Shown piece by piece: positions 20,992 to 51,803 of a stretch of DNA of 64,000 nt. The DNA lies in assembly GCA_044892505.1 (NCBI GenBank), contig CM097882.1:399528001-399592000 (forward strand), in the 5' to 3' direction. The notes beneath the pieces were generated by a model. The model saw only the letters and a list, made by a program, of their open reading frames with translations. It made no database searches and was not told the DNA's origin. Each line of letters opens with the position of its first letter. The first letter of the stretch is position 1. This DNA is from Schmidtea nova. Its lineage: Eukaryota. The position numbers were made by a program, and so were the translations under genes.

Positions 20992-21009
20992 TGGGGGCTC
21001 AGCCGGGAT
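20992..21009 (+). promoter_or_regulatory. Primer binding site, tRNA-Pro
   Basis: TGGGGGCTCAGCCGGGAT matches the MLV tRNA-Pro PBS TGGGGGCTCGTCCGGGAT at 16/18 positions; 6 nt downstream of the LTR. Confidence 0.9.
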
Positions 21010-22690: not shown

Positions 22691-22706
22691 GGGATATCCG
22701 GATATA

Positions 22707-23436: not shown

Positions 23437-23868
23437 ATAAACCAATCAAATCAACCCAATCAACCAAGGAAGAAAGGAATTGGAATACGATAAGACAGGA
23501 AAATTGAGTATATAAAAGTAATTCCGTTGAGAACAGGAACAAAGAGTGTCGTAATAAAACCAACAGAGAAGAAAGTCGACAATAAAAGTAACAAAAAGGA
23601 TCAGACCAGTACTACAACAAACTCAACAAAACAGAAGAAAGCCGGCAAAGATAGTAACAAAAACCCAAAGGGAAGTAAAGCAAGGCAGATAATAATACAA
23701 AAGTCGATCATCGAAAACGATAAATTATCAGTAACAAGCAACAGTTCCAGCAACAAAGAAAATCAAGCAGAACCCGAGAGAAACCCAATAAGTGAAATAG
23801 AAGTCGACAAAACCAACAACGATTATATCGAAGAAATAGAAGACGAAGTAGAACAAGAAACAGAATAA
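23437..23868 (+). pseudogene. Probable N-terminal basic/acidic extension of the polyprotein, detached by a stop (23491) and a frameshift (~23852-23865)
   Basis: Same codon and amino-acid style as the main ORF. The main frame is open from 23852 and continues the acidic tract (EQETE / NNDSKASDNES). No ATG; starts right after ttgtattttag. Confidence 0.55.
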
Positions 23869-23998
23869 CGATAGTAAAGCATCGGACAACGAATCAGCAA
23901 AGGAAACTGAGATCGACATAAATTCAAGTGACGAACATAATAGTGAACTAGAAACAAGAGGAAACGAAAGTAAAATAACTACAGACAGCGGAATTGAA

Positions 23999-26900
23999 AT
24001 GAGCGAACCCAGAGAAGAGATAAAAGACAAATTTTCCGGAGAACCGTTAAATGGAGATGCGAGTAAATTGGAAACTTTCTTAAAAGAATTTGGCATATTC
24101 GTGGAAGTATGCAAATGGAAACCAGAAACAACTGTAAGCAAAATTCAGCTATATTTAAAAGATAGCGCATTAGATCTATATTTGGAAGCAAAAAATGGAA
24201 TTAATCCACCTACAAGTTGGTCAGCGATAAAGGACTTTTTCCAACAAACCTTCGGAATAAATAAAGTATTGAATGAGGCATTCACGGAATTCTCAATGAG
24301 GAAACAAAAGATAAATGAATCGAATGCGGTATATGCAAGCGAATTGAAAAAGTTAGCAAAGTTGATTTTCAATCAAGACAGTCCAATAAATGAGGAGTTA
24401 ATGGCAGCTATCTTTGTGGGAGGATTAAGAAGACCCGACATAAGAGCGCAAGTTGGATGTCAAGGGTGTAAAACTATTGACCAAGCATTAGATACAGCTA
24501 ATAGATTTGAACTACACATGATAGGAAACGACGGTAGAATCTATTTAGCTATGGATACAGCACAAAACGAACAAGAAGTGAACCTGAATAACCACATTCC
24601 AAATTCACAACAATTAAACCGACCACCACCGCAACGAAGGAATGAAGGGAATAAAGTATCAAATTACGGAAATCAAAGCAATTACAACCCCCAAGGACCA
24701 ACGAAACAATGCAAAACATGTGGGAAATTGGGACATTGGCAACAAGAATGTTATCAGAACTTGAATTGTGGAAAATGTGGAGTAAAAGGGCATTCAGAGA
24801 GCAGATGTTATACAATAACCTTTTTTAATTGTGGACGACCTGGACACCTATCAAGAAATTGCGGACAAAGAAGCAATCAACGAGGAAACTGGCAGAATAC
24901 GAGAAACCGACAAAACTATGGAAACCAACCAACTGGTGGAAACCGACAGAATTATGGAAATCAGCCAAATAATGGAAATCGACCGGAATACGGAAACCAG
25001 CAAAATAATAATAATAATAACCAAAATAAAAATACCACTAAAGAGATACATTTAATGCAAGAGGTTCAAAGATTGACGGAGCTGATAAACAATACAACCA
25101 GAGGAAATCCGCAAACAGGTCAACAACAAATCAACATGATGAGAAAAATAGAAAGCGAAAACGAACGATTGAATCGAGAAAGCCAAGCACGACATGCTCA
25201 GGAATGGGCAAGAATACAAAGAGAAGATGAACAAAAGCAGCAAGAAAGAGAACGACAACCTCTAAGAATCAATATGATGAGAGCAACCAACCAAACAAAT
25301 ACCCACGAGAAAGAGACTGTGCCAGAAATAAATCCAACAAACCTGAATCCAACCAATAACGAAAGTCGAAAAGAAATAGTACCAGGAAGCGAAGAAGCAG
25401 AAACAGAGAAGGAAGTAGAAAAAGAAGGGAACCAGGAAGAGAAAAGGAAACTCGGGAAAAGAGGAATGATGGTAATTTTGCCAAACAAGCACGTGTTTCG
25501 ATTCCAATATAACATAAAAGAAGAAGTAGGAATATTGTTCAACAAAGTGAATGAAATGGCTCCAGGAGTAACGAAACTGCCCAGAGAAGCATTCCTACAA
25601 ATAGAAGGTGCACCAGAAGTAAAATTGAAACTAACGGATACATGGGAAAACATGGGAGTAGTAGAGACAAAAAGAAATGTGATGGTAATCAAGGAAATAG
25701 AACCAGAAGGAATTCCATCGCCAGTGCGTCACGAAAAACGAATCAGTCGAATATTTAAAGGGAAAATGATACTAAGACGGTTGGGAGAAATAGACGAGTT
25801 AGAACGAAAAATGAGAAAGGTCGAGGTAGTAGACGACAAGAGTGAATCAACACAAAAAGCTATTAAAAGTGAAACAAGACCAACGGAAAATACACCAAGT
25901 GAAATCAACCAAATAAAACACATTAACATGTTGAGAGGCCAGGCAAAGAATTTTTCAGACGACGAAGAGGATAGTGACGTCAGTAGTCTAGCAGGGGACA
26001 TGCTAAACGAACCGGAAATTGAAGACAAAAAGATAGAAGTAGTAAAGACACCAGAAACTATTCAAGTAAAAGAAGACGAGATCCAGAAATTACTAGATAA
26101 TGCGCTAGAAGTAATATATAACGAGGAATTCATTGACAAGAAACACTATCGAAAATTCATGAGAGCGATATTACAAATGAACTATAAAGAGTGGTTACCA
26201 GGCCGAGAAGAAGAAACACTAAGCCAATACGTAGGAAAATTATTAAAAGAACCACTCCATGAATATATAATACTAATACAGATAAAAACATGTTTGCCAA
26301 GGATTTGGATCAAAACTCCACTCACGGAGGATATTTATCAATGGGTAGAAGACAGATTAGGGAGTTCGTATAAGAACAAATTCCTCTATTCACAGAATGG
26401 ACTAGTGAAGAAAAGGACGCATTTGATAGAAACAGGCATATGGCCAGGAGAGGTGACAACATTATCGATATGCGATGATAAGAGAGAAGAGAACCTACAA
26501 GAAGTAGCAAAGGAAGCAAATACGTGTTTCGAGAAGAAGATTAAACCACGGTTAGAATATGAGAAAGGACGAATCTTACGAGGAAATCTAAATTCCATGA
26601 TAGAACAAATCATCCCACAAATCAAAAAACATAGAAAGGAGTTAATGAGAAGCGAATACGAAAAGTTGAAACGATGTATCGAGTGCATACGTGACACAAG
26701 TCACACGAGATGGTCACAGATCTCATACGGAAAAGTAATTGCCAAAATGGGAAAAGCAATGTTTAGACAAGGAAAAATAACAGATCTAAAAATTTCAGTG
26801 GAATTGCCTAATGAGGATACCAAAGAGATTGAAGTAGTAGCCGATTGTACCATAAAAGAATTAGTAAATGTCATCAACGAGACACTATTACAAAGAGAAC

Positions 26901-29731: not shown

Positions 29732-30890
29732 AAAATACTTCAAGACACAGTACGGGGAGAGAAAAAGATTGAAACCCGAACACAAGAAAAACAAATTAAA
29801 ATGAGAAATACACCAACGGTACTAATTACCTCAGATGCAGATATCGGAATGAGGTTTGTAAAAGGAAAAACAGCCTTGAAATGCGGAGTAGCCATGTTGG
29901 AAACCAACTACCCCGGCATTTTCGTATCGAAACAAGAAGTACCTAGTGCGAAACGCAAAGTGAACAAGAACGATGTTAAATTACACCTGTACATGAACAA
30001 TAAAATGGATTTTCTATTCCATAGAGGACAAGCGTCACTACAAAAAGTGTATTACGACTTAATTAACAACGATTGCATATTAAATAGGGAAATATTAAAG
30101 ACAAAACTAGCGGTAGCAATCACAAACCCGGACAGTGCAATGCCATTATTACCATTGAGAGAAGGTCATTTTGGAAGGGTAGTCGGAGAGGTCATGTACG
30201 TATACATATGTAAAAAGACGAACGCAAAGGTGGCAACAATGACAAAACTACAACCAGGTCAGTGTACTAACGAACTAGAAATTGAATATAAAGGGAAAGT
30301 AAGATATGTGCAACCAGTGACAAGAATCATAAATCCAGTAAGCTTCGAACCAAACCCTTTCAATTGCAGCAACGCATATGGACCACTATACCAAAAACCA
30401 GACGGAAATTGGGTTATGTTTCCGTCAAGAACAGAGGTACCAGCACCAAGGGAATTTGAATTGATGCAACTATCAAAAGGACGAAAATTTAAAGACGTAG
30501 ATGTAAGTAATATGGGATTCTATAGCGCAAAAGACTTAGAGGCAGCGAGACAAAACATACTATTTCCAGCAAGAAGGGAAGCGGTGCTATCCAGTATTGT
30601 AACAATAACAGGAGGAACAAATTACCAAGGTGGACCAAATTACGAATTATTATTGTCACCAGCCCACTTTAAGAAGGCAACGGAAAACATGATGAAAGCG
30701 ATGTGGGGAAGATTTTTAATATTTGGACAAATGATGGCAGGAATACTTGGTGTTATACTAATTATACAAATAATACGGGTAATAATAACGCAAATGTTAG
30801 CCTGTTTTGACATCTATAAACGAGAAAAGAAAGTAAATTGGAAATTGGTGGTAGGGTTCTTACCATTTTTGGCTAAAACAATGGTATTAC
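29039..30890 (+). other. env: Envelope glycoprotein domain, chuvirus-G-like (putative class III fusogen), interrupted by TGA at 29729-29731
   Basis: Signal peptide then F.DC start; Cys-rich ectodomain; YYDLINNDCILNREIL...GEVMYVYIC...CTNELEI...QPVTRII...C...W pattern; TM segment FLIFGQMMAGILGVILIIQIIRVII. Confidence 0.8.
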
Positions 30891-33800
30891 ACGGTCATTC
30901 AAAAGATATTCACCGAATAAAAAGACTCCTAAAAATACTAGCAAGAATGAAAGGGACAGACGAAGAAGTAGGACGGAAATTCAAAAAGATAATGAATAAC
31001 GAACAAGCGAGACAACAACTAAAGAAGGAAAGACAAGGACTATGGGAAAGAATGAAAGGGTACAGAACCCAAGACGATTCCAGTGACGACGATGATGATG
31101 ACAACGAAGGAGGTCAAGTATATAAAAATCAAGCACCACAGTACGTCGAAAAGAATCCAGCTGAAATGTGGAAGTGTTACGCACCCCCACCAACCATGTA
31201 CCAAGAACCAACACCAGGGATGAGACAAAATACAATGCAAATGATGCCGATGACAAACATATATCCTATGATACCGGAAGACTATAGAACGAGACGGTGC
31301 AGAAGCGTAGATCCGCAAGGAGACTCACATACAATTGCAGTAATGTCATCAAACACCGGTCCAGTATTAACCACCACAATCGAGATTAACGGAAGGGAAA
31401 TTGAAGCGATGATTGATACAGGAGCAAATATCTCAGCAATAGATATAAAATGGATACCACAAGAACAAAGACGGGATATTGAGAGAACCAACGTTCACGT
31501 AATAGCATGCAGTAAAGAAGTAGTAGAAGTTGCCGGACGATGGTGGGTGAAGATAAAACATCAAAACACAGAAATCGAAACGTACGTAGCAGTAATACCA
31601 GCACTGAACGTACCATGCATTATAGGCACGGATCTGATGCCAGCATTATTTAAAGAAATAGTTATTGACCTCGGAACAATGAGACTAAAGGATAGGACAG
31701 GACAGATATGCGCAATAGAAGCAAAAGTAACAAGTTCGAAACAAATAATCGTACCAGCACGGAGAGAGAAAATATGTTTCGTAAAAATAGATCCTACAAT
31801 AGAAGGTGACATGATCTTTGAACCCAGTAAAAGATTTGAAAAGAGAAAGTCGTTGCCAATGGCAAGGGGATTAGTGAGTGCGAATGACAACGGAGAAATC
31901 CCGATAAATGTAATAAATTTCGATGAAGAAGATAAAATAATTTATGAAAATGAAAGATTAGGTAAGCTAACTCCAATGATAGATATCAAAATACCAATAA
32001 GAGAAGGAGAAAAAGATGAAGAACCCACCTGGAACATTGATAGCCAACTATTAAATGAGGATCAAAAGAAACAGCTAGAAAGATTACTGATAGAATATAA
32101 AGACATATTCGCAGCATCCGATTTAGATCTAGGGACATGCGACGTCACACTACATACGATTCCACTAACAGACGAAACGCCGATTGCGCTAAGACCGTAC
32201 AAGTTAGCTGAAGCGCAAAAATCAGTAGCAGAAGCGGAAGTACAGAAAATGTTAGATGCGGAAGTAATTGAACCAAGCTGCTCACCATGGCAATTCCCAG
32301 TTGTAATGGTGAAAAAGAAAGACGGAACACAACGATTTTGTATTGATTATCAGAGATTAAATGCGGTAACAAAACGGGATACATACCCATTACCAGACAT
32401 CAACGAGATGTTATTGACATTACAAGGAGCGGCATATTTTACATCATTGGATTTGAAAAGCGGATACTGGCAAATTAAAATGAAGGAGGAAGACAAAGAG
32501 AAAACTGCTTTCACTATCAGAAGAGACTTGTACCAGTTTAGGAAAATGCCATTCGGACTAACCAATGCGCCAGCATCATTTCAAAGATGTATGAATTTCG
32601 TTACCCACGGCATAAAACAATGCATGGTTTACATTGATGACCTACTAATCTACTCAAGCACATTTGAACAACACATCCAAGATATCAGAGATGTATTTGT
32701 GAGATTGAGACAATGGAAACTCAAGCTCAAACCATCGAAATGCGATTGGGCAAAAGAGAAAGTGACATTCTTAGGACATATTGTGTCCGCAAAAGGAAAG
32801 GAACCAGATCCCAGAAACATTGATAAAGTAAAAGAATGTCCAGTACCAAAGACGATAACGCAGATCCAAGAATTTCTCGGATTATGCGGTTACTATAGAA
32901 AATTCATAAAGGATTACGCAGGAATTGCAAAACCAATCCAAGAACTAGTAATGAAAGACGTATCATTCATATGGGGAAGCGAACAACAAACAGCTTTCGA
33001 AACATTGAGAGATAAGCTAATAACTGCACCAATATTGGTTCACCCGGATTTCAAAAAGCCATTTTTACTCGCAACCGACGCAAGTGGATATGCAGCAGGA
33101 GCAGTGTTAGGACAATATGATGACGAAGGTAAAGAACGAGTAATCGGATATTATAGCAGAACATTCAAGAAACACGAGAAGAATTATTCAGTAACGGAAA
33201 GAGAAGCATTGGCAATAATATTAGCAATAAAACACTTTAAATATCTATTATGGGGACACGTTATATGCATAACCACGGATCATCAACCACTTGTATGGCT
33301 AGGACAACATAAGGAAACATCCAGCAGATTAATGAGATGGGCGATGCAACTACAAGAATATTCACCAGATATAAAATTCAAATCAGGGAAAGCGAATGCC
33401 AACGCAGATTGCATGTCAAGATTGACGTTTCCAGAACTAACAGATCCAGAAGTACAAAGAATATGCATAGTGATAGCAGAGGATTTGGATTTCAGTGAGT
33501 TAAAGAAAGATCAGCAAGAGGATAAAGAACTAAGACCCATCATAGAATTCCTAAGCTCACGAAATATGGATGTATTCAAAGACAATGCGGAGTTAAAAGA
33601 ACACATGAGGAAATACCAACATCGATACACAATAGAAAAAGGATGGTTGTTAATACAAGATGGAGAGAAACGATTAATGTGTCTGCCGAGCAATAGACGA
33701 AAAGAGATAATAACTCAATACCACGACGGAAAATTGGGAGGACACATGTCCGACAAGAAAACATTAGACCGCATGAGACAAAATTATTATTGGCCAACAA

Positions 33801-36800
33801 TGGACGAGGACGTAAAGGAATGGATAAAGAACTGTTTAACTTGTGCCACAAGAAAGGATAGTGGGAAGAAATGGAAAAATCCCTTAAAACCCATGCCGAT
33901 ACCAGCAGAACCAATGACTACCATTGCGATGGATGTAATAGGACCATTGCCAGAAAGTTTAAACGGGAATCAATATATATTGGTAATAACGGATTATTTG
34001 ACTAAATTCCCTGAGGCATTTGCGATGCCGGATCAAAAAGCAAAGACCGTAGCAAGAATTTTAGTAGAGGAAATATGTTGTCGATACGGAACCCCGAAAC
34101 AAATACTGACAGATCAAGGGACAAATTTTATGAGCGAAATATTAGATGAAGTAACAAACTACTTCAGAATAGCCAAATTACGAACGTCACCATATCATCC
34201 GCAAACCAATGGACAAACGGAAAAATTTAACGGCACATTGATTCGAATGTTATCCAATTATGTAAGCAAAAACCAAACAGATTGGGACGAATACGTAAAG
34301 CTATGTCTAATGGCATACCGAATGTCGATACACGCAGCAACAAAATTGAGTCCATTTCAATTAATGTATGGAAGGGAATGCAATATGCCAATAGATCTAG
34401 AATATCAACCACCTTTGTCTCAATATATGGAGGAAGATGATTACGTCACCAAATTCAAAGAACGAATGCAAGAGATATGGAAGACAGCAGAACTAAACAT
34501 AAAGTTTTATCAAGAAAGTTACAAGGACCTACACGATCAAAAGAAAAACGTTAAAACAAATGATCTTAAACCCGGAGATTGGGTAATGATAGAAACCCCA
34601 GAAATAATACCAGGAACCGTTAAAAAACTACAAAGACCAGGAAAAGGCCCTTACGAAGTTATATACAAAAAGGAAAACAATGTGAAGGTAAAACTTGTTA
34701 ATCGACCATTGATACGACCAATATACGTTAATACATGCAGATGTAAGAAAGTACCAAAAACAATAACCACAGCGCCAGAAGAACGAATAATAACAAGATC
34801 CCAGACAGCCAGAATAAATATGCTCAGAGCAAGCAATCAAAGCACCGAAGCTGAAAACAATCAACAGAAAAAAAGAAACAAGGAAATTGTACTAAAAGCC
34901 AGAGAAATATTGGGAAAATGGCATGTCAGAGACGATATATTAAGGGATATTCAGTCGATAATTAGTGATTACGCAAGGGGACTACCAACAAAACCAGTCA
35001 TTTCAGAACTACTGGAAAAAATTCCAGAAATACTTTCACTAGAAGACATAGGAGGACAACCAGCATTACATAACGCCATAAAATGGGGAGAAGTAGAGAG
35101 AGTAAAAGAATTTCTAAAAATCGCAAAGGAAACAAACCAACACCTTGGTTTTGGGAATAGCGAACAAGAAACACCATTAATGGTAGCAGCCATCTACACA
35201 TCGGATAAAGCAATAGTAGACCTTTTGATAAATGCCAATTTCAACTGGACGGAACGCGATAGAGAAAACAAAACAGTCTTGAATCACGCAATATGGAGCT
35301 CAAATCAGATAATGCTCAAACAAATAATCGAGAAGGCCACTTGGGAAATCGACGAACTGATCAAAGGTGATATAATCAAGGAGGCAATAAAAATCGGTAA
35401 CTGCAAAACAATACGCAAGCTAATAAAATGGAAAAGATCCGAAAATGATACATGGGTGTTAAATATAAACGAGGTATACAGTGAAGGACAAAACGCGTTA
35501 TTACGATTTCTATTAAAATTCGTTTGTGACCAGAAAACACTGTTAACGCTATTAGACAGAGGAAATATCATAATTTCCGAAAACAAAGACGAATGTAAAT
35601 TCGAAAGTGAAAAAGAAGCATTATTCAGGAAAATTAGGGAATGGTGTGCAAAATCGCTAACCAAGACGATAACTTACAAAGATATATCCAATTTTCAAGA
35701 TAAATACAAAACGGTGGAGGAAGAGTATGACAAACTAATAGACATATTAAACCACCCCGAAAAATGCAAACAATTCCTATGTCGAAAGGAAAGAGAAAGC
35801 AAAAGGAAATTTACACCACTTTTCAGCGCAGAGGTACCATATCAAGAAAGGTTGGATGCGATACAGGACAAAGCAAAAGAACTATTACCAGAATTCGAAA
35901 ATTCTAAACATACACTGGAGATACTCGGAGCAATTGTGGAAAAGGTACACTCATACGCGGAAGGAACTTACAATGAAAACGATATGACGATCATAAAAAG
36001 AGAAATGCCAGTGACTTTCTTATTAACAAAGAATGGAGTATTGCCAATACATAGAGCCTTACGAGCAGGAAAAGATAGGAGGGTAGTCGAAATTGCACGG
36101 TTAATGCAAGATTGCGGAAGTGACATGAACATGAAAGATAAAAAGGGAGATACTCTCATGATATTCGCAGCAAGAGCGAACACAAAAACCCGAGTGTTAC
36201 AGGAACTGTACGAAGCAGGTGCAGGACTCATGGGAAGAACGGACAAAGACAGCTCAATACTAGACGTAGCATTGTTAACGCACAATTGGGAGGTGATAAA
36301 TTTTATAAAAACAATCACAAATCAGGAGGAAATAGAATACCTTACAAGGACAGTTAAAAAAGCTAGCGTACATTCCATGATGCATAACGCTGAACTAACC
36401 GAAGCAATACTCAATTGGATGAACCCAAACACCAATGAACCAGCATTCAGGATCAACGAGTTCATGGAACAAGGCCAAAATTTATATATAAAGTGTGCAT
36501 TAATAATAAACAAATGGCCAAAGATAATAGACATCTTCATGAGAAGAAAAGATTTACGATTCACAAACAACCCAAAGGAAACAGAACGTACGGACAAATG
36601 GAAAGAACTAATGAAAACGTACCTTAATAATTGGATAAAAGCCAAGAAAGAGATTCTAGATTGTAAATTAACCGATAAGGAAATACCTAAGCAGGCAGTA
36701 ACACAAGAATATGAAGCAAGTATACTCACAACCATAACGTATGAAAAAATGATAGAAGCAATTAATGTCGAGGACGACATTTTCAACGACCAAAGGGGAG

Positions 36801-37198
36801 GCGACAATACAGGAAGCGACGACGATAGTACTCGAGAAAATCCAGAGGATCATGAGTTATCAGATAAAGAGGACAGTGAAGAGAAAGGAAGGGACACAGA
36901 GAAAAATGATAAGAAAAATGAATTTGGGAAACAAAGAAACAACAACTATAAAAATAAAAACGAAGCAAAAAGAACAGGCTACAAACAAACAATAAACCCA
37001 TTCTTTAAACCAGAACTATTATTACTAACGGTAATCATGACCTTAATTAGTCCAACTCAAGGAATGATATGTGAAGAAAGAGCGACAATACAAATTAGAA
37101 ACGCAAAAGGAATCGAACGAGTATGTTGGTCGAAAAAGGACAAAATCTCGGGACAAAATAGTCCAATGGATTGCAGGATCTCAGAATACGAACAATAA
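29801..37198 (+). CDS. pol: Polyprotein part 2: C-half of glycoprotein with TM, protease, RT, RNase H, integrase, two ankyrin modules, second signal peptide
   Basis: IDTGA (31415), YIDD (32630), TDASG...EALA...TDH, H..GGH...CLTC, MDVIGP/TDQG/TEKFN and GPY motifs; ankyrin motifs QPALHNA and ETPLMVAA. Same frame as parts 1 and 3. Confidence 0.96.
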   Translation: MRNTPTVLITSDADIGMRFVKGKTALKCGVAMLETNYPGIFVSKQEVPSAKRKVNKNDVKLHLYMNNKMDFLFHRGQASLQKVYYDLINNDCILNREILKTKLAVAITNPDSAMPLLPLREGHFGRVVGEVMYVYICKKTNAKVATMTKLQPGQCTNELEIEYKGKVRYVQPVTRIINPVSFEPNPFNCSNAYGPLYQKPDGNWVMFPSRTEVPAPREFELMQLSKGRKFKDVDVSNMGFYSAKDLEAARQNILFPARREAVLSSIVTITGGTNYQGGPNYELLLSPAHFKKATENMMKAMWGRFLIFGQMMAGILGVILIIQIIRVIITQMLACFDIYKREKKVNWKLVVGFLPFLAKTMVLHGHSKDIHRIKRLLKILARMKGTDEEVGRKFKKIMNNEQARQQLKKERQGLWERMKGYRTQDDSSDDDDDDNEGGQVYKNQAPQYVEKNPAEMWKCYAPPPTMYQEPTPGMRQNTMQMMPMTNIYPMIPEDYRTRRCRSVDPQGDSHTIAVMSSNTGPVLTTTIEINGREIEAMIDTGANISAIDIKWIPQEQRRDIERTNVHVIACSKEVVEVAGRWWVKIKHQNTEIETYVAVIPALNVPCIIGTDLMPALFKEIVIDLGTMRLKDRTGQICAIEAKVTSSKQIIVPARREKICFVKIDPTIEGDMIFEPSKRFEKRKSLPMARGLVSANDNGEIPINVINFDEEDKIIYENERLGKLTPMIDIKIPIREGEKDEEPTWNIDSQLLNEDQKKQLERLLIEYKDIFAASDLDLGTCDVTLHTIPLTDETPIALRPYKLAEAQKSVAEAEVQKMLDAEVIEPSCSPWQFPVVMVKKKDGTQRFCIDYQRLNAVTKRDTYPLPDINEMLLTLQGAAYFTSLDLKSGYWQIKMKEEDKEKTAFTIRRDLYQFRKMPFGLTNAPASFQRCMNFVTHGIKQCMVYIDDLLIYSSTFEQHIQDIRDVFVRLRQWKLKLKPSKCDWAKEKVTFLGHIVSAKGKEPDPRNIDKVKECPVPKTITQIQEFLGLCGYYRKFIKDYAGIAKPIQELVMKDVSFIWGSEQQTAFETLRDKLITAPILVHPDFKKPFLLATDASGYAAGAVLGQYDDEGKERVIGYYSRTFKKHEKNYSVTEREALAIILAIKHFKYLLWGHVICITTDHQPLVWLGQHKETSSRLMRWAMQLQEYSPDIKFKSGKANANADCMSRLTFPELTDPEVQRICIVIAEDLDFSELKKDQQEDKELRPIIEFLSSRNMDVFKDNAELKEHMRKYQHRYTIEKGWLLIQDGEKRLMCLPSNRRKEIITQYHDGKLGGHMSDKKTLDRMRQNYYWPTMDEDVKEWIKNCLTCATRKDSGKKWKNPLKPMPIPAEPMTTIAMDVIGPLPESLNGNQYILVITDYLTKFPEAFAMPDQKAKTVARILVEEICCRYGTPKQILTDQGTNFMSEILDEVTNYFRIAKLRTSPYHPQTNGQTEKFNGTLIRMLSNYVSKNQTDWDEYVKLCLMAYRMSIHAATKLSPFQLMYGRECNMPIDLEYQPPLSQYMEEDDYVTKFKERMQEIWKTAELNIKFYQESYKDLHDQKKNVKTNDLKPGDWVMIETPEIIPGTVKKLQRPGKGPYEVIYKKENNVKVKLVNRPLIRPIYVNTCRCKKVPKTITTAPEERIITRSQTARINMLRASNQSTEAENNQQKKRNKEIVLKAREILGKWHVRDDILRDIQSIISDYARGLPTKPVISELLEKIPEILSLEDIGGQPALHNAIKWGEVERVKEFLKIAKETNQHLGFGNSEQETPLMVAAIYTSDKAIVDLLINANFNWTERDRENKTVLNHAIWSSNQIMLKQIIEKATWEIDELIKGDIIKEAIKIGNCKTIRKLIKWKRSENDTWVLNINEVYSEGQNALLRFLLKFVCDQKTLLTLLDRGNIIISENKDECKFESEKEALFRKIREWCAKSLTKTITYKDISNFQDKYKTVEEEYDKLIDILNHPEKCKQFLCRKERESKRKFTPLFSAEVPYQERLDAIQDKAKELLPEFENSKHTLEILGAIVEKVHSYAEGTYNENDMTIIKREMPVTFLLTKNGVLPIHRALRAGKDRRVVEIARLMQDCGSDMNMKDKKGDTLMIFAARANTKTRVLQELYEAGAGLMGRTDKDSSILDVALLTHNWEVINFIKTITNQEEIEYLTRTVKKASVHSMMHNAELTEAILNWMNPNTNEPAFRINEFMEQGQNLYIKCALIINKWPKIIDIFMRRKDLRFTNNPKETERTDKWKELMKTYLNNWIKAKKEILDCKLTDKEIPKQAVTQEYEASILTTITYEKMIEAINVEDDIFNDQRGGDNTGSDDDSTRENPEDHELSDKEDSEEKGRDTEKNDKKNEFGKQRNNNYKNKNEAKRTGYKQTINPFFKPELLLLTVIMTLISPTQGMICEERATIQIRNAKGIERVCWSKKDKISGQNSPMDCRISEYEQ

Positions 37199-37240
37199 AT
37201 CATAGAGATCGATGACTTAAAGCTAGATACTTGGTACAGA

Positions 37241-38959
37241 ATGTGCACCGTTCGGAAACCAAAGGATCCGAGGGCACATAAGACAATTGCATGTGCAAAT
37301 TACCTAACACCCAAAGTAACCATAACAGTACAGCAGTCATCCAAAGGAGACTACGTCGTAGGAAAGTGCGGAAGAACAGAGACACAAGGAACAAAAAACA
37401 AGAAACCCCAGACAATAGACAGACGAACAACGCCAACTATACGAATTACCATAGACAAGCCCGAAGTAAGAGTAACCACAAACGAAACCGAAAGAGTGAC
37501 CTACCAAACAGAACTACTATGTTTAGCACTCATATTAACAATGTTAAAACGGTTAGAAGAAGGGATAGACATTGAGACAATGGCAGTAACAGAGATGAAC
37601 GACACCCAAAATACCAACCCAAAGTGTTGGGCCAGAAACAACGAAGAAATTGGCATAAGCGAAATAAAGAGGAGTCAGAAAAGGAAAACAAATAAAGTAA
37701 CCAAGATATCAAGAGTAAAAGCAGACAGGAGGTATGAATTATGTTTACTAGAAAAGGAAAGACACAAGAAAGGAACGACAATTTGTAAAACATTTCAAAC
37801 CGGGGAAGCAATAAAGTTCATAAGAAGAAGAAGAAGAAATATACGCACCAAACGGAGAACAACTATAATGTTAGAGTTAACCGGAATAGAACCGGACGTC
37901 AAAGGCGTATGCTGGAAGAAGCAGGAAAAGAAAACAAACCAGAATACACCGCCGCAATGTCGAACAAACAAAGGAACAACCACACTACAGATAGAAGGAT
38001 TAGAAAGTAATCAAACGTACGAAATATGCCTGATTAGGAAAAGCGACAAAATAACAGTAAATGAACTGGAATGCAAAATATATAAAACACCCACCAGAAC
38101 AAGAGTTGGAAAGACAACGCGAAAAAGCAGAAGAAGACAACGGAACAAAGGAAAAGCGAGGTATACCACTACCTTTAAACCTAATGGACAACAGAAAAAC
38201 CAAGAAATACAAATAAAAACCGAAAAGAATACTACAACAACTCTTATACTATGGAGAATAGACAATAAAACGTTAGAAATATGTTGGGCAGTAGTTCAGG
38301 AACAAAAAGAAAGACAGCCACGATACTGCGAAAACGTAAAAGGAAAAGAAGAAATGAGTATCAAAAATCTGAAATTTAATAGAGAATACGAGATATGTGC
38401 GGTAGAAAAGACGGACATATTGGGAAATCAGCAGGAAAGATGCGAAACGTACTACACACCGGTAAACTCAACGTCCAAAGGGAAAGTGAGAAAGCTCGAA
38501 TTTAAAGAATTAAGTCAGACAACGGAACAAATGGACGCAGAACAAGTAGTAATAGACCCTTACGCAAGATGGACGCCGGAAGAAGTAATTAAAGAAGTTA
38601 AAAGAAAACAACAAGAACGAGAACAATTACTAAATAAACTAAAGGGACAGTACGGACCAATGATTAACCACAGTGAAAGTACAAAGATAAACACAAACAA
38701 ACAAGTTAGAGAACTAATTGGTCTAGGAATACTAGCAGCAACTATTCCAGTAATAACAGTGTTATTAATAATATGGATATACGATGTACTCAACAAGAAA
38801 CCAATAACACATTGGCCAGATATAAAAATTATGAACTACAGAATAGAATTACCGGAAGAAGTACAGAAAGAATTTCAAAGGAGGACGAAAGGTAAAGAAT
38901 TTTGGAGACAAATAGAAGATGAAGAGCGGTACGAAGGAAAGACAGTGATGGTGATATAG
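37241..38959 (+). CDS. Polyprotein part 3: Cys-containing fibronectin-type-III-like repeats with C-terminal TM helix
   Basis: Repeated CW...C...I..L....YE(I/L)C units (IEGLESNQTYEIC, IKNLKFNREYEIC, ISRVKADRRYELC) and TM LIGLGILAATIPVITVLLIIWIY. In frame with part 2 across one TAA. Confidence 0.78.
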   Translation: MCTVRKPKDPRAHKTIACANYLTPKVTITVQQSSKGDYVVGKCGRTETQGTKNKKPQTIDRRTTPTIRITIDKPEVRVTTNETERVTYQTELLCLALILTMLKRLEEGIDIETMAVTEMNDTQNTNPKCWARNNEEIGISEIKRSQKRKTNKVTKISRVKADRRYELCLLEKERHKKGTTICKTFQTGEAIKFIRRRRRNIRTKRRTTIMLELTGIEPDVKGVCWKKQEKKTNQNTPPQCRTNKGTTTLQIEGLESNQTYEICLIRKSDKITVNELECKIYKTPTRTRVGKTTRKSRRRQRNKGKARYTTTFKPNGQQKNQEIQIKTEKNTTTTLILWRIDNKTLEICWAVVQEQKERQPRYCENVKGKEEMSIKNLKFNREYEICAVEKTDILGNQQERCETYYTPVNSTSKGKVRKLEFKELSQTTEQMDAEQVVIDPYARWTPEEVIKEVKRKQQEREQLLNKLKGQYGPMINHSESTKINTNKQVRELIGLGILAATIPVITVLLIIWIYDVLNKKPITHWPDIKIMNYRIELPEEVQKEFQRRTKGKEFWRQIEDEERYEGKTVMVI

Positions 38960-39084: not shown

Positions 39085-39441
39085 ATGAACGAACAGGAAG
39101 AAATAGCAGAAACTACTATGGCTATGCGATGGAAAGCCCAGTGTGACATGTTAATACGAACAATCAACTCACTACAAAATCAGTTAATTGAGAAACAGAA
39201 TTTGTTATCCGAAAGTTATAATAATAGTTTTGAACAACTCCACAGAATCGAGGAGCAACAGAGATTGATAACGCAACTTACCAGAGAGAATCAAGTGATG
39301 AGCGACATAAATCAGAGGCAAGCAATAGAGATAGACCGTTTAACAATGGGAGAGACAGAAGAAGCAGAGGATGGATGGACAAATTGGGCAATAAACAGAT
39401 CAGAAAATGACCCAGAACCAGATTCAACAAACGAGCCGTAG
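39085..39441 (+). CDS. Accessory coiled-coil protein, 118 aa
   Basis: Heptad-rich Q/E/L sequence, tttag before the ATG, AATAAA after the stop. Confidence 0.7.
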   Translation: MNEQEEIAETTMAMRWKAQCDMLIRTINSLQNQLIEKQNLLSESYNNSFEQLHRIEEQQRLITQLTRENQVMSDINQRQAIEIDRLTMGETEEAEDGWTNWAINRSENDPEPDSTNEP

Positions 39442-39532
39442 ATAAATAAAGCGAAAAATTGTAAATATGTAAAAACAAAAACAAGAAAAATCAAAAAATA
39501 GATAACAAATCAAGTGTTTATATCATTGTAGA

Positions 39533-40915
39533 ATGAATACAGAAGGAAAAGCCGAAGAGCGGATAATCGAAATTTTGAGAGCCGAGAACAGGAAATGGAG
39601 TCAGAGACTCACTTGTGTAAATTGTAAAAACATAATATTGAAACCAAGACAAACCCTATGCGGATGCAGAGTATGTACCAAATGCATACACGAGTTAAGT
39701 ATGAAAAGACCACCAGAATGTCCAGAATGCAAAGAAGGACAAATAAAATTCGAAGAAACCGGACCAGATAGAGCAACTCAGAGAGAAATCATGAACACGA
39801 AAACCGAATGTATAAATCAACCATGTATATGGCAAGGACAAATACGCGATCTCGAGAACCATCTGGAGAACTGCGAGGAGAAGAGAATTGAATGTAACAA
39901 ATGCCAACAAAAAATAACTATAAAGAATAAAGAGCAGCACAAAGATGAATGTAAAGAAGATGAAAGTCTATGCGAATATTGTGGAACTCGAGAAACGAGG
40001 AGAAAGATCGAAGAAGAACACCTGAATGTAAAAGAGGAGAAAGTATGTAGACAATATAAAGGAATATGTTCAAACGAATGCGAGATAACGGTAGAAGTAA
40101 AATTACAAGAACATTGGAAAGTGTGCACGGAGAAACCAAGGGAATGTCCTTATAACAAACAGGGATGTATGGAGAAAAGAACGCAACAAACCATGAAACA
40201 ACATCTGGAGGAAGCATTACTAAAGCATGTGGAAATGACAAACGAAGCAACAAAAGAAACCGAACAAACGATCAAAAAATTAGAAAGAGAAATAGAGTCA
40301 CACAAGATAATGGTAAACCTACTGTTGGAAACCAGAGAGCAATTCGAACTAACACGAGAAAAGATGGAGAAAAAGATAAAAGCTATCGAAGAATTGGCTA
40401 AAGGAATGAAAATCCAGTACAACAAACTCACACAGGATACCGAGGAAAAGCTACCAATAGCACCATATGTGTGGAAAGTGACAGATTTTAGAGACAAATT
40501 AACAGAGGCCCGAAACATGACGAAAACAGCAGTAATAAGCCCACCATTTTATTTATGGAGAAACGGAGCTAAAGTGAGATTGAAGCTATACCCAAATGGA
40601 GACGGAAGAGGACGGGGAACACATGTGTCAATATTTTTCTCGCTAGGTAAAGGAGAATACGACGACCTAGTAGAATGGCCCTTGAAAGTAGGAGTCATTA
40701 TAAGAATCAGAAGTGTAACAAAACCAGTGGAAAAATTCTTTGAGACGGAGAAACATGCGAGCACGAGCGAGAAACCAACCACAGAATGTGGATTAGCAGC
40801 GGGAGAACCGATGTTTATAACGAAAGAAAGCCTATGGGAACGATTATATGCAGACACCTTATACATAGAAATGGAAAGGAATGAGAAAGCAGATAGAAAA
40901 GGATGGTTGACGTAA
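39533..40915 (+). CDS. TRAF: TRAF-family protein (RING, TRAF zinc fingers, coiled coil, MATH)
   Basis: CVNCKNII..PRQTLCGCRVCTKC...CPEC RING; CPYNKQGC...MKQHL finger; MATH signature WKVTDF...SPPFY...LYPNGDGRGRGTHVSIFF...GEYDDLVEWP. Confidence 0.95.
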   Translation: MNTEGKAEERIIEILRAENRKWSQRLTCVNCKNIILKPRQTLCGCRVCTKCIHELSMKRPPECPECKEGQIKFEETGPDRATQREIMNTKTECINQPCIWQGQIRDLENHLENCEEKRIECNKCQQKITIKNKEQHKDECKEDESLCEYCGTRETRRKIEEEHLNVKEEKVCRQYKGICSNECEITVEVKLQEHWKVCTEKPRECPYNKQGCMEKRTQQTMKQHLEEALLKHVEMTNEATKETEQTIKKLEREIESHKIMVNLLLETREQFELTREKMEKKIKAIEELAKGMKIQYNKLTQDTEEKLPIAPYVWKVTDFRDKLTEARNMTKTAVISPPFYLWRNGAKVRLKLYPNGDGRGRGTHVSIFFSLGKGEYDDLVEWPLKVGVIIRIRSVTKPVEKFFETEKHASTSEKPTTECGLAAGEPMFITKESLWERLYADTLYIEMERNEKADRKGWLT

Positions 40916-41033
40916 CAAGAGAAGTGATCATGTAAATAATATGTACAGTTAAATACCCAAAAATTATTATATAAACAAAAATAACTGATATATAAACCGA
41001 TTAAAAAAATTTTTTTTTTCTGAAATTATAGCA

Positions 41034-42095
41034 ATGGGAAATATCGAAGTATGCTTACAGGAAATTACGATGCATCAAGCAGAAGCGATTTGCGATCATC
41101 TAGAACAGATTGAAATATGGGTCAATGCATATTATGGAAAGCAAGAGGAGATAGAGAGACAAGCCGAATTATTAAAAGAAGCGGAAAGATCAAGTCAAAG
41201 AAGTCGAGAAAAAATAGAAGAAGTATACAAAATGCTACAACAACAAAAGGAATATTACCAGGGAATGATGAAAGAGCGACGAGAGGAAAGAGACAGACAG
41301 CAGATGGAAGCTGAACACAAGATGTATTCGATTACAGAACAAGCAAGATACTGGAAGAAAGAAGCGAAAGAATCTTACGAAAAAGCTAGAGAAATAATAG
41401 AAAGGACAGCTTATAGTGATGACTGGAAATTATATAAAGAAATCGACGAATTAAAAGACGAGTTAGAACAGAAAATCCACCAAGAAGTGTTGAATAAGAG
41501 ATGGAATACAAAGAGACAGCAATTTATCCGGGAACAAGCAAAGAAAATTAAAGGACTCACCTATCAAGTTCAAAGAATGGGAGAAGAACTAGCTAATCAA
41601 GAACAACTGAAAATTATGCTCACCGGAATATGGAATCAGAAAGAAGAAGAGATGAAGAGAGATATAAATGGTTATCAAGGAGTGATTACCCAGAAGAAAA
41701 TAGAGCTAAAAAGAACCAGAGAAAGGTTAAAGGAAGAGAAACAAAGTTATGAGGAAAATTTAACGAATTTGATGAAAGAAAACGAAGAATTGAAACAGAA
41801 ACGAGTAACAGTATCAGTAATACCCAAAGAAGCAAGTATAACGGCAGCCGTAACAAAAATGATGAAAGAAGACGAACAAAAGACAAAAGCAATCGAATTA
41901 GAGAAGCAAATAGAAACATTAACAGAACAAGCAAATTACCTAGAATATTTGCTGGACGAGGAGATCCAGATATCTCACATGTATCGAGATGAAGTCGAAA
42001 TGTGGAGGAGCAGGGTTGTTTGGATACCACTCCCCACGAACCAGGTAGAGCCTCAGGACGAAGGTTTCTACGAACCAAACGAGACGATTGTGTAA
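41034..42095 (+). CDS. Accessory long coiled-coil protein, 353 aa
   Basis: Intact E/K/Q-rich helical ORF, ttatag before the ATG, AATAAA overlapping the stop. Confidence 0.8.
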   Translation: MGNIEVCLQEITMHQAEAICDHLEQIEIWVNAYYGKQEEIERQAELLKEAERSSQRSREKIEEVYKMLQQQKEYYQGMMKERREERDRQQMEAEHKMYSITEQARYWKKEAKESYEKAREIIERTAYSDDWKLYKEIDELKDELEQKIHQEVLNKRWNTKRQQFIREQAKKIKGLTYQVQRMGEELANQEQLKIMLTGIWNQKEEEMKRDINGYQGVITQKKIELKRTRERLKEEKQSYEENLTNLMKENEELKQKRVTVSVIPKEASITAAVTKMMKEDEQKTKAIELEKQIETLTEQANYLEYLLDEEIQISHMYRDEVEMWRSRVVWIPLPTNQVEPQDEGFYEPNETIV

Positions 42096-42177: not shown

Positions 42178-42681
42178 ATGAAAAAGCTCAGAATACCGAT
42201 ATTCATATACCTAATAACAATCACCCTACAAAGAGAAGATCTTCAACTCACAGAGAAGGAGCTACGAGCCCTACCCGAGAAAACCTATCAAGAGCTAGAT
42301 AAACTAATCAGCGAAGCAACACAAGAAATCACCCAACTTCAACAGATAACATTAGACAACCCAAATGACGAAAAATTTCAACAGACCCTATATGAACATC
42401 GAATCAAATTGAAAACAATCAGAAAAACCCTAAAAGAAGGTCGAGAACCCATAAAAAGCTTAGCCCAAGCAGAGATAGAATATCAAGAAAAATGGATCAT
42501 CGCAATTATAATAATCCTTGCACTCAGCGTGACCATTATCGCGATCACAATCCTCATAACATCATACCGAGTGAAGATCCTAAAACAAAAACAAGTCATC
42601 CTGAATCGAACAACAATACAAGACATCAGAACCCAAAAGCGAATGAGAAAACACCTAAACCGAATCCAAAGCCACTACTAA
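42178..42681 (+). CDS. Accessory small type-I membrane protein, 167 aa
   Basis: Signal-like MKKLRIPIFIYLITITL, helical ectodomain, TM WIIAIIIILALSVTIIAITILI, basic tail. Confidence 0.75.
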   Translation: MKKLRIPIFIYLITITLQREDLQLTEKELRALPEKTYQELDKLISEATQEITQLQQITLDNPNDEKFQQTLYEHRIKLKTIRKTLKEGREPIKSLAQAEIEYQEKWIIAIIIILALSVTIIAITILITSYRVKILKQKQVILNRTTIQDIRTQKRMRKHLNRIQSHY

Positions 42682-44322
42682 CTACGAACACTCAGCGGAG
42701 GAACCCCAATCCAATCCAATACCAATCATGAAATCAAAGAGCTTGTGTAAAACTGATAAATTACATTCACTTTATGTATGATCCACGTACAATTAACAAT
42801 AATATGACTTTGTGCTTAAGTATAAAAACTTATCACCTTATGTGATTCTTTGTGTATATGTAAATTGACATTTATCTGTTTAATTTTTATGTATGATGAT
42901 ATAGGTGTAAATGTATAATTAATTGCGGGACGCAATTTTAGGGGTCCCCGAGTGATGTTGGGCCAGCCAAATAGAGGGAAAGTGAAATAAAAGTAGAATA
43001 ATTAAAACAAAAAGAGAAAAATAAGGTAAAAAAGGGGAATATTAATTTGTTAAAAGAAAAGAGTAATATAGTTAAAATATAGATAAATTAAGAACAAACT
43101 ATAAATAAAAATAAATGAATTTCTAGATATTAACGGGCCCAGGAGACATCTAAAAACAAATAAAATACAAATAATAATAATTAAAACCAAATAAAAGTAC
43201 TTGTTATTGAATAATTGTTTTTGAAACCCAGACCTCCGAGGAAGAATACAATCTAAAAAATAAAAATTAATTAGAATCAAAAATAATAATCAAACCCACC
43301 ATGAAACTGGCCGAACCTGATTGGTCGGTCTAGACACGACTGATCAGTATAAATACTGATCAGATTTTTCATAAAATCAGACTAAAATTTAGACTTTGTA
43401 AAAACTTAGACTTGTGTTCAGACAAAAAATTCACATTAGATTGTACATTGCTCCGACTGAGATCACTACTAAGTTGATATTAACCAGGCTGATTTTCAAT
43501 AGACGATCACCGTTTAGACCGATTTTAATCGAACAAATTTTCGGGATTCAATTTAGGTATTTTTGATATATTTACGTTTATTATTGATATTGTTGTATTC
43601 ATATGTCATCACATTAAAATATATTGATTATTTATCTCATTATGATTTATGTTTATATTTAAAATATATAATGATCATATTAATCTTGCGCCGTTGGGAG
43701 CTTTAGGTTCCCAAGGTGTCCGTCCGTGGCGTGGTGCTCGAGGGCTCCACACACGGTAAAGTAATGAATAACAAAATATGACTTTATTAGTAGTTGACGG
43801 GATTTGCACATGGGACACCCAACAAATCCGGGGAATTATTTTCCGATCATTTTAGCTACAGAGGAGGCGATTTTCGGATAAAGTCTAACGATGTAGGATA
43901 GGAAAGAATTTTTCGACTGTGAGGAGGCACAATTTTTCACCCTCACCACAGCACAGAGTGCTAAATAAACATCTAATAAACCTTAGAAAATTAGGTCGAC
44001 CGCATTTGATACGAAAGGGGCGTTTTCCGAGTAAGCTAGGAGATACATGATGTGAAAGAGTTTCCGTTTTAAGATACCAATGTTTCGATATCCACGCAGA
44101 CAAATCACCATTTTTCGACTATATTATCGGACAAGAACGGATAAATCTAAGCAGACACGAGAGTAAGGTACACCGTAACGAGCAACAGTTTTTTCTTGAT
44201 TTCAGTTAAGGTCTAAGGTGAAGGCAAATAATAAAGGCATCACGATGAGAGATAACATCTACTATAATTAATCATTGATTTAAATTGTTAACTATTATAA
44301 AATTCAGCGTCGTTCTAGTATC

Positions 44323-44769
44323 ATGACTAAACACAGATTCACCATCAAAAAGCGACGAGAACGAGCCCGAATTAGCCCATTAAAGCCGGCTCCATTTGAG
44401 ATTTTGCAACAAATCCATCAAAAAATGTGGGCATGGCGCTGAGAGCTTGAAACCGCATGTCCATTTACAGTATGGGACCATCCACGGCATCACGTATGGT
44501 ACCGGGGATGCGCTAGTTGGCCAATCATTCCAGACGAGGAATTCGAATCATGGCACGCCGCCTGGTTCGTTCTGATGTTAGATAAACGGGGATTCCCGAA
44601 CTGTGTGATTTATTGGGGGTTCATCCCAGCCTCTACATTCAAGGAATTGGGGTTCACTTTCCATACAGCCATACGACAGCAGGCCTCGTCCAACTCCACT
44701 GGAATCAGCTCTCATCTACAAATCAGATCGATATTTTCGTACCGAGGGAAAATGACCGAAGATGGATAG
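44323..44769 (+). pseudogene. LTR gene A, 3' LTR copy, inactivated
   Basis: CGA>TGA at 44440 and a 30-bp in-frame deletion relative to the 5' copy. Confidence 0.85.
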
Positions 44770-45105
44770 TTGAATCAATGGCCACCTGTTTTAAATTAAA
44801 TAAATGTTTTAGAGAAATCTGAAGTGTTTCATTTTGTTAATAGCGCTATAATGTAGATGAGAAATTTATTAACCTCTAGTGTTGTAGATGTTACAGTCAG
44901 TAGGACATTCTTTCACTAATGTAAAACAGTTGAATAAAATTTTTGAGCCTCCAATCTTTAAATAGAAAAATAATTTTTGTGTAAAGATTTAATACTTGAA
45001 CACAGTAGTATGCATTTTTGCTCCTAAATCGTAAATAGTCACTTAAATAAAATGACCTTGTTGATAGGTCCTCCAGCGAATTTATCATTATAATATTCAG
45101 ACATC

Positions 45106-45690
45106 ATGCCGACTTCAGAAAACTCTAAGAGAATCGTGGGACAAATCCAAGAGAGGCAGTTAAGGGACCAGCAGCGGCAGATCAAGCGACTCACGGTCGC
45201 CAATGATGAATTGAGAGCGAAGTGGTTCTCACCCGAACAAATGAAGGGCCAATCGCAAAAACTTGAGCGGCTGCAGGAAGCACTGGCCGCAACTAAATTG
45301 GAACTAGACGCCGTCCAGAGAGAACTGCGAAATTGCCTAAATGCAGTAACAAGAAGTTATATCGACTCCGAATTACGAGCGCTAATCCGGCCGATCACGG
45401 CTCAACGCTGGACGCAAAGTACTTATCAAGATGTCGCATGCGGGACGGAAGATGGTATCAGCATGGCCCCCACTCTCGTAACGGCCGATTTGCCTACTTT
45501 TCACAGTGATCCATCGAGAACAATGGCGTCAGCACCCGTCCTAAATCCACAGCTTCGAAAACACCGAATGGGATCGCGACAGCGTCGGCGTCGCCGAGAA
45601 TTTGCGAAGCGCCTGGATGAGCAAATCCACCACTTAAACTCCTTAACCGAAGCAGAGTTGATTCAGGAGATTAGTATGGAGTTCGCGTAG
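45106..45690 (+). CDS. LTR gene B, 3' LTR copy
   Basis: Identical protein to 19846-20430 except L>M near the C-terminus. Confidence 0.8.
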   Translation: MPTSENSKRIVGQIQERQLRDQQRQIKRLTVANDELRAKWFSPEQMKGQSQKLERLQEALAATKLELDAVQRELRNCLNAVTRSYIDSELRALIRPITAQRWTQSTYQDVACGTEDGISMAPTLVTADLPTFHSDPSRTMASAPVLNPQLRKHRMGSRQRRRRREFAKRLDEQIHHLNSLTEAELIQEISMEFA

Positions 45691-46344
45691 GAAAACATCA
45701 ATGTCAAATAACAACCTGTTTTTATTATTTTAATAAAAGTGTTTTTGTGTAAATTTTGTCTCTCATCGTGTGATTTCACTAAATAAAATAAGACAACACA
45801 AGTAATTCGTAGAAATAAAAAATCGCGTCGTAAAACCTACCCCGACCGTTACTTAGCAGCGAGAGTTTTCGTAGGCTCGTAGAACAGCGAAGGAGAGTGT
45901 CATTTGGAAAAGCGTGTGATGGATCCTAAGGATATGTAGTATAAGATTCAGTGGGCGAACATCCATAGAATGTAAATGCGTAAGACCTTCTATCGGCAGC
46001 AAGGACCCGAGGGAAGATAAATGGGGAGTAGTTTTGGCAACAAAGCTCACCTGCCCATCATTTTTCCACCACCGTATGCAGTACCAACTTGACTAGTAGG
46101 GAATAGTCAAGGGCATACGCGTGTAGTAGTCATGTTATGTATGGTTATGGGCGTGGAATCCCTGGTATACGTACTCATCAATAGTCGTTCAATTAATGAT
46201 TAACTATTTATTTGAATTACTTAAAACCCACCCATAATCCCAACAACAAAAAGAAAAACATTTTTATTTTTAAATCATTAAAAAAGGATAAATTAATCAT
46301 TTAAAAGTTTACTAAATCATAATTGACGATTCTTCATCAAAGCG

Positions 46345-51758: not shown

Positions 51759-51803
51759 ACCTTTGATCTTTTTTTATTATTATTATCAATAATTCTCATA
51801 ATG

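Follow-up and report, generated by a model that had tools for sequence, protein, structure and literature searches.

The giant gypsy-like Burro (GYPSM1) LTR elements of planarians (Jurka 2007; Grohme et al. 2018) are described as carrying an env gene in frame between gag and pol, a BCL2 domain before env, ankyrin repeats and a BIR domain (PMC6431247). The same account places a MATH_TRAF_C domain either inside the 4,873-aa Burro1 polyprotein or, in D. tigrina, in an upstream accessory ORF, reporting TRAF-type cargo in Burro elements of two planarian species, and calls ubiquitin-like and dUTPase-like segments by use of HHpred (PMC6431247). A further accessory gene, the Burro1 IAP (B-IAP), is reported to combine a RING with a BIR domain and to protect stem cells from apoptosis (Lee et al. 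2026, via PMC13465017). TRAF-type cargo in Burro is thus known, since PMC6431247 describes MATH_TRAF_C there, and both the TRAF/MATH cargo and the IAP accessory gene are already published in these sources; the TRAF presented here is a fuller version of that cargo. TRAF proteins form trimers through a coiled coil, bind tails via the MATH domain and ubiquitinate through the RING (PMC6262405). In planarians, TRAF-2A/B are required for cell survival and regeneration (PMC8807557, PMC7586133), TRAFs have been tied to immune responses (PMC8807557), and Traf-6 mRNA is described as a piRNA target (PMC11663942). The MATH repertoire of Schmidtea is expanded, with reported counts of 121 domains (PMC6109357) and 282 contigs, many of them partial (PMC7586133).

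The locus considered here lies in a 64,000-nucleotide stretch of Schmidtea nova DNA (the window, in whose own coordinates all positions are given). A TRAF ORF (39533..40915, +) is enclosed by 3.3-kb LTRs at 17667..20985 and 42956..46245 (+), identified by direct-repeat comparison, which begin with TG, end with CA, are 99.6% alike and are bounded on both sides by a 4-bp target-site duplication, ACAA (17663..17666 and 46246..46249, +), delimiting an element of 28,579 bp (28.6 kb). Six nucleotides past the 5′ LTR is a primer-binding-site-like sequence (20992..21009, +), which we take to resemble a tRNA-Pro PBS. Downstream follow a 153-aa accessory ORF (21314..21775, +) with a helical N-terminal part and a C-terminal IAP-type RING (zf-C3HC4_3, E 7.6e-12, Pfam; XIAP RING, E 4e-11, PDB) and without a BIR domain, a candidate splice donor of consensus-like form in the leader, GAG/GTAAGA (22049..22057, +), and leader tandem repeat arrays (22183..22994, +).

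The long frame of the element, about 5,000 codons, falls into three segments. Segment 1 (23852..29731, +), whose start is uncertain and which has an apparent frame break near 23.86 kb, comprises gag with CCHC knuckles, a BCL2-like helical domain at about 28400-28900 with a BH2-like motif at 28829, and the first part of env, within which it closes at an in-frame TGA. Segment 2 (29732..37198, +) continues in the same frame with the remainder of env, PR, RT, RNase H, integrase and, after the integrase, ankyrin repeats (Ank_2, E 1.6e-13, Pfam), and ends at an in-frame TAA; segment 3 (37199..38959, +), again in the same frame, contains three FN3-like motifs, for which the best Pfam match was fn3_5 at an E of just 0.075, and a hydrophobic C-terminal segment. 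The env match (Monjiviricetes_fusion) lies between gag and pol and extends without a change of frame from segment 1 into segment 2, split in this copy by the stop. Sequence searches with the BCL2-like segment, an atlas search included, returned no match; its low-confidence model (pLDDT 49.6) retrieved only BCL-2-family chains among the 38 matches listed, the best at E 0.1. Ubiquitin-like and dUTPase-like domains had no Pfam match in the polyprotein segments or sub-segments tried. Four accessory ORFs lie 3′ of the long frame, with TRAF second among them: a 118-aa ORF of no credible family (39085..39441, +), the TRAF, a coiled-coil-like 353-aa ORF of no family (41034..42095, +), for which an atlas search was uninformative, and a 167-aa ORF with hydrophobic segments and no family (42178..42681, +).

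Several other features of the window merit description in their own right. At 37100-38959 the end of the polyprotein combines FN3-like repeats with a signal-like hydrophobic stretch and a segment of transmembrane-like character; it resembles a type I membrane protein that would be released by cleavage, and is absent from the Burro domain list in the available portion of PMC6431247. Both LTRs contain ORFs (19033-19509, about 159 aa, and 19846-20430, about 195 aa, with copies in the 3′ LTR) that have no family match and lack both the A-rich codon style of the element and the acceptor-before-ATG signature described below. About 4 kb from the giant element lies an LTV1-like host gene (12336-13543, -), the AT-rich introns of which are very short. 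A second, small LTR-like element (6714-10658) is bounded by 505-bp direct repeats (6714-7218 and 10154-10658) that are 99.2% alike, and carries a ribosomal protein L6e-like fragment in frame with an 873-codon ORF that also encodes an Ig/V-set-like segment together with a gag-like (DUF7041) region; a decayed gypsy pol at 55091-58327 (-) has about 77% DNA identity to this element. At 50850-53400, about 1 kb of N adjoins a 689-bp perfect inverted repeat (51804-53211) of a GIY-YIG/Penelope-like ORF, a label given by eye, and the repeat may stem from mis-assembly around the gap. A broken non-LTR retroelement occupies 60849-63325 (+).

The TRAF ORF runs from ATG to TAA, encodes 460 aa and has zero internal stops. 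Pfam searches placed MATH_2 at residues 312-447 (E 1.4e-20), with TRAF-mep_MATH also matched, and zf-TRAF at residues 170-224 with a score under the curated cut-off. For residues 22-151 the matches were to RING/zinc-finger structures from TRAF6, TRAF5 and TRAF2 (E 2e-11 to 1e-9), and the C-terminal MATH domain matched TRAF5/3/2 structures in the PDB (E about 1e-21). An AlphaFold model built from an 11-row alignment (mean pLDDT 82.7) predicts a single unbroken helix at residues 229-302 (74 residues, pLDDT 85-94) followed by a beta-sandwich at 312-450, and every one of the Foldseek matches listed for this model is a TRAF structure. The RING ligands are C28, C31, C43, C45, C48, C51, C63 and C66; five putative zinc fingers, with Cys and His residues grouped by hand, occupy residues about 93-232; and 15 zinc-ligand Cys/His are invariant in 11 aligned sequences of 27-35% identity. 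The receptor-binding region of the MATH domain has diverged, with HASTSEKP...LAAGEP in the element protein versus NSSSFKKP...IASGCP in TRAF3, and the pLDDT of the model is only 70-74 at residues 401-430. As judged from sequence and predicted structure, the domain set of a TRAF-family (TRAF2/3/5-like) protein is complete, with RING and zinc fingers, coiled coil and MATH, and the ORF, Pfam, structure matches and model thus agree with the initial annotation, which had described an intact 460-aa TRAF with these domains.

Where did this gene come from? The initial annotation regarded it as a captured signalling adaptor, and phylogeny with host TRAFs bears this out by placing it among triclad TRAFs. 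An exhaustive protein search with the TRAF gave 5132 matches at E<=0.001, and the 150 best of these were taken; a word-index search yielded only 13 distant matches. Among the top single-stretch matches within these best 150 of 5132 were Dugesia japonica TRAF2-like A and Dendrocoelum lacteum TRAF-2, -4 and -5. Trees were built by FastTree from 120 rows and by IQ-TREE under a mixture model from 32 hand-picked rows with midpoint rooting, two proteins (P0038 and P0051) being trimmed before their non-homologous tails for the latter. In the 32-row tree, the element TRAF and three collected proteins (P0025, P0038 and P0051) formed one group (support 100/98), nested in a 19-row group (100/100) with the named Dugesia and Dendrocoelum TRAFs; FastTree recovered the same grouping of four. 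P0025 is full length (469 aa) and 36% identical to the element TRAF, and P0038 and P0051 are about 40% identical over the N-terminal part only. The share of residues with A-rich codons in these three proteins (0.53-0.59) is the highest among 119 TRAF matches (mean 0.38, sd 0.04), the element TRAF standing at 0.55, and for this reason they too are probably cargo of related elements. The tails of P0038 and P0051 showed no match to the downstream ORFs of the element. For the MATH region alone the composition index (0.41, 0.43 vs 0.31-0.45 for host TRAFs) gave no separation. The common A-rich composition could itself draw the four proteins together in the tree. Moreover, an AU test kept the topology in which host-type TRAFs form a single clade excluding the element TRAFs (p 0.199, for a group named post hoc), so that element TRAFs nested in the host-type group and element TRAFs sister to it are indistinguishable. 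The TRAF tree by itself would make the host a triclad; a search with the LTV1-like host gene among proteins of at least 428 aa, which could have confirmed this host group, gave no match. Capture from a triclad TRAF is nonetheless a conclusion in which we place high confidence.

The same collection of proteins clarifies an unusual feature of the RING domain, in which CGCRVC of the element TRAF stands opposite CGHRFC of TRAF5/6, replacing His with Cys. A RING pattern was found in 111 of the 173 collected proteins, with His at the position concerned in 81 and Cys in 30, eight of the latter being a differently spaced CC variant. The Cys-type RINGs include those of Dendrocoelum TRAF-2, -4 and -5 and of two echinoderm TRAF3-like proteins (Asterias and Anneissia). 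Because host Dendrocoelum and echinoderm TRAFs carry the same Cys, the residue is inherited, and its origin as an element innovation is rejected. The substitution that the initial annotation pointed out is thus real, but it is not a special feature of the element.

The silent sites of the gene are informative as to its time in the element. At fourfold-degenerate positions the TRAF has A/C/G/T counts of 80/19/28/9, statistically matching the 1028/201/275/154 of the element polyprotein (chi2 p=0.43), and differs from the exons of the flanking host gene LTV1 (48/16/15/36, p=6e-6; a single host gene with 115 sites) and likewise from the window's other TEs (p=4e-12). The flanks of the TRAF contain no poly(A) run, the longest A run being 7 nt, and no convincing target duplication, the longest shared word being an A-rich 9-mer; an independent insertion of the TRAF, of which a poly(A) tract or a credible duplication would be the mark, was consequently rejected. 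The earlier suggestion that an element-like codon style reflects long residence accords with the match to the polyprotein rather than to LTV1, and the insertion hallmarks that would count against it are not convincing in these flanks. The TRAF has very probably been a long-term resident as cargo of an element lineage, as opposed to a one-off insertion.

The particular copy in the window is a different matter. The two LTRs differ by just 12 substitutions in about 3288 positions and by three indels (1, 2 and 30 nt), from which the insertion is judged to be young. At this level of divergence the probability that the TRAF would carry no nonsense change is 0.85, and its intactness in so young a copy is therefore no evidence of current selection. 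The polyprotein is interrupted by two in-frame stops and by what looks like a frame break near its start, and neutral drift predicts about 1.6 stops; these lesions are consistent with neutral decay, and this copy, which is probably non-autonomous, may be dead. The nonsense estimate alone was used, because the LTR indel rate over-predicts coding indels (6.9 predicted for the polyprotein, where about 1 is apparent).

How a gene located downstream of so long a frame might be expressed is suggested by its surroundings. The TAG of a TTGTAG splice-acceptor-like site (39529..39531, +) lies 1 nt before the TRAF ATG, and each of the five internal accessory ORFs shows a YAG 1-3 nt upstream of its first ATG: TAG at 3 nt for the 153-aa and 118-aa ORFs, a T-tract with TAG at 2 nt for the 353-aa ORF, and CAG at 1 nt for the 167-aa ORF. 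As background, YAG occurs 0-3 nt before 53 of 479 other ATGs of the internal region (11%), and the two LTR ORF starts tested had no acceptor. At the other end of the gene, TGTAAATA (40931..40938, +) begins 16 nt past the TRAF stop, and it recurs 16 and 28 nt past the stop of polyprotein segment 3, 19 nt past that of the 118-aa ORF, and at -4 and +22 of the 353-aa stop. We take this octamer to be Pumilio-element-like, or else UGUA joined to a poly(A)-signal-like sequence; a Pumilio element and a component of a 3′-end signal are both conceivable identities. It occurs near four of the six window stops examined, an arrangement reached by 0/2000 shuffles, with a motif count of 7 when a join artefact is left out. 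TGTANATA is not enriched across the window (21 observed vs 14.8 expected); only its position after stops is.

Both patterns were spotted in the window first and then tested on six metagenome loci that encode long related polyproteins (L001-L005 and L007, from the best 80 fetched). In these related elements an acceptor precedes 7 of 11 accessory ORFs, against 187 of 1652 background ATGs (p 5e-5), and TGTAAATA follows 6 of 16 stops, which 0/2000 shuffles reach. The stop-to-start spacers of the 3′ cassette (125, 91, 118 and 82 nt) are mutually similar, and ORFs on one strand with gaps near 100 nt and an acceptor ahead of every downstream one fit the gene layout of flatworm SL operons; in Macrostomum, SL trans-spliced operons are reported to have an intergenic spacing peak of ~100 bp (PMC8629364). 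With acceptors before the ATGs and TGTAAATA after the stops, the simplest reading is that the accessory genes are each spliced into an mRNA of their own, and the arrangement points to spliced, separately processed cargo mRNAs that are possibly operon-like. Release of the TRAF from a long LTR-driven transcript by splicing onto the ATG-adjacent acceptor is, on these sequence signals, likely. The consensus donor at 22049 fits retrovirus-like cis-splicing, but the sequence does not discriminate between cis-splicing out of a donor in the LTR or leader and spliced-leader trans-splicing of an operon-like 3′ cassette.

More distant relatives place the TRAF in a narrower context. The metagenome scan, which covered 44 of 64 parts and of which the best 80 loci were kept, reached relatives with about 44% best-segment identity at the closest, in loci that may be incomplete; in these best 80 loci the TRAF, three other TRAF queries, the RING ORF and the 3′ ORFs had zero matches at E<=1e-3. 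The MATH domain is likewise absent from all 15 related polyproteins scanned, and neither the polyprotein alignment nor the TRAF found a match among the viral contigs scanned. Four of the loci (L001, L003, L004 and L005) carry an RNase_T-family (DEDD) exonuclease as a 3′ accessory ORF. As relatives carry other 3′ cargo and no TRAF, the TRAF appears to belong to one sub-lineage and not to the env-before-pol group at large. As a side observation, the exonuclease ORFs (L001:10617-12107, L003:12169-13473, L004:8592-9923 and L005:9043-10374) each start 0-2 nt past an AG acceptor. Among public proteins, at least 18 (within P0199-P0234) share the RT-integrase region at 47-52% identity. A fusion glycoprotein precedes pol in 11 of 15 scanned relatives, several of which have extra protease-like or ankyrin domains, and this env-before-pol group is therefore broad in public assemblies.

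It is rather probable, all evidence considered, that the locus represents a host-derived TRAF in the 3′ cassette of a Burro element, expressed from its own spliced mRNA as a survival-tilting adaptor and ubiquitin ligase. The TRAF gene would have been captured long ago from a flatworm host into the 3′ cassette of a giant gypsy element, and its own spliced mRNA would give rise to TRAF protein. By analogy with characterized TRAFs, the chances seem evenly balanced that this protein would form trimers via the coiled coil, either with itself or together with host TRAFs, engage the tails of receptors or adaptors with its MATH domain and act as a ubiquitin ligase by means of its RING, alongside the BCL2-like domain and the IAP-type RING and in the same direction as these, toward host cell survival, and not as one half of a BIR1-docked pair. 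A pro-survival role is favoured because the BCL2-like and IAP-type RING cargo of the element points likewise. The diverged MATH groove makes a decoy function the main rival: the element TRAF would join host trimers and, by virtue of an altered groove or RING, dampen innate or antiviral signalling. Such a role would suit an element that is virus-like in possessing env, groove residues that differ from those of TRAF3/5, and the link of planarian TRAFs with immune responses (PMC8807557), but every RING and zinc-finger ligand is retained, an all-Cys RING is normal in the host group, and Dendrocoelum TRAF-2 has a comparable LAAGQP segment; we regard it as unlikely.

The initial annotation further envisaged that the TRAF might pair with the IAP-type RING protein as TRAF2 pairs with cIAP. 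Both genes are on one element, both have acceptor-adjacent starts, and the Burro1 IAP accessory protein has been reported with BIR as well as RING (PMC13465017). Yet cIAP docks on the TRAF2 coiled coil through BIR1, which it needs for this contact (PMC6262405); no BIR was found in the RING ORF here by Pfam or PDB searches, nor did a six-frame regex scan of 17667-46245 detect a BIR zinc motif. Because BIR1 is required and none was found in the element, the proposed pairing is weak, and we hold a ligase of this kind to be highly unlikely. The remaining alternative is that a host TRAF retrocopy entered the element, or this copy of it, and rides along without function, as could be argued from the youth of the copy, whose frame should have stayed open even if unselected (P 0.85), and from the lack of a TRAF in distant relatives (best 80 loci and 15 polyproteins). 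That the silent sites are fully in the element style while the zinc ligands are kept speaks against a mere passenger, as do spacers that share the acceptor and 3′ motif with those of neighbouring element ORFs and bear no insertion scars, and the TRAF-type cargo known from Burro elements of two planarian species (PMC6431247); this alternative is very improbable. In wider terms, Burro elements are coming to light as an instance of mutualism between host and transposon based on the capture of apoptosis genes, and a complete TRAF in the 3′ cassette extends their known IAP and BCL2-like cargo by a module for receptor signalling.

It is plausible that element copies contribute to planarian MATH/TRAF counts, and an annotation question follows, namely what share of the 121-282 Schmidtea MATH transcripts or contigs is element cargo, which a screen for codon skew could address. 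It is also tempting to combine these threads in a joint reading, in which the 3′ cargo of Burro is a built-in operon whose ligase-competent TRAF rewires stem-cell signalling and feeds both the TRAF expansion and piRNA targeting. Taken whole this is doubtful. If it were true, one LTR transcript would be resolved into separate mRNAs via 3′-end processing and spliced-leader trans-splicing, the full-length TRAF would rewire survival and immune signalling in stem cells, and element copies would be responsible for a genuine part of the planarian TRAF expansion, besides contributing to an explanation of why TRAF mRNA is a piRNA target. The pattern of acceptor and TGTAAATA also offers a testable answer to the question of how a retroelement with a single promoter expresses four downstream genes.

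With respect to novelty, the accessible portions of the literature, including PMC8532177 and PMC11410931, describe no full-length Burro TRAF downstream of pol, no cassette of acceptor and motif, and no link of Burro to the TRAF expansion, matters that Grohme 2018 or Lee 2026 may cover. What is new here, and the most useful new lead, is the cassette with an acceptor before the ATG and TGTAAATA after the stop, recurring in distant relatives. The element itself is likely a Burro, on a comparison with named Burro by description only; since its closest RT-integrase relatives are unnamed proteins at 47-52% identity, membership rests on architecture. The two are alike in giant size, long LTRs, leader tandem repeats, a ~5,000-aa polyprotein with gag-CCHC, a putative BCL2-like domain, ankyrins and an in-frame mononegavirus-type env before gypsy-order PR-RT-RH-IN, and in TRAF-type and IAP-type cargo. 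At 28,579 bp the present element is slightly smaller than the >30 kb given for Burro (PMC6431247). The MATH_TRAF_C of Burro1 resides in the polyprotein, and that of the D. tigrina element in an ORF upstream, whereas here a whole TRAF, with RING, zinc fingers, coiled coil and MATH, forms a separate ORF downstream of pol. As with B-IAP, an accessory apoptosis-regulating gene on Burro1, an IAP-type RING ORF is present, but B-IAP is reported to have RING and BIR and the 153-aa ORF has the RING only (PMC13465017).

Host TRAFs (Dendrocoelum TRAF-2, -4 and -5 and Dugesia japonica TRAF2-like A) resemble the element TRAF in domain order, in length (about 450-490 aa), in tree group and, where full length, in an all-Cys RING; they are only 27-31% identical to it, and the element copy differs in being strongly A-rich and in lying inside an LTR element. 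A parallel outside flatworms is provided by ORF111L of the fish iridovirus ISKNV, a TRAF that is reported to be pro-apoptotic through TRADD and caspase 8 (PMC3352826). There, too, a TRAF homologue is carried on a mobile or viral genome, but the carrier is a large vertebrate DNA virus and the capture an independent one.
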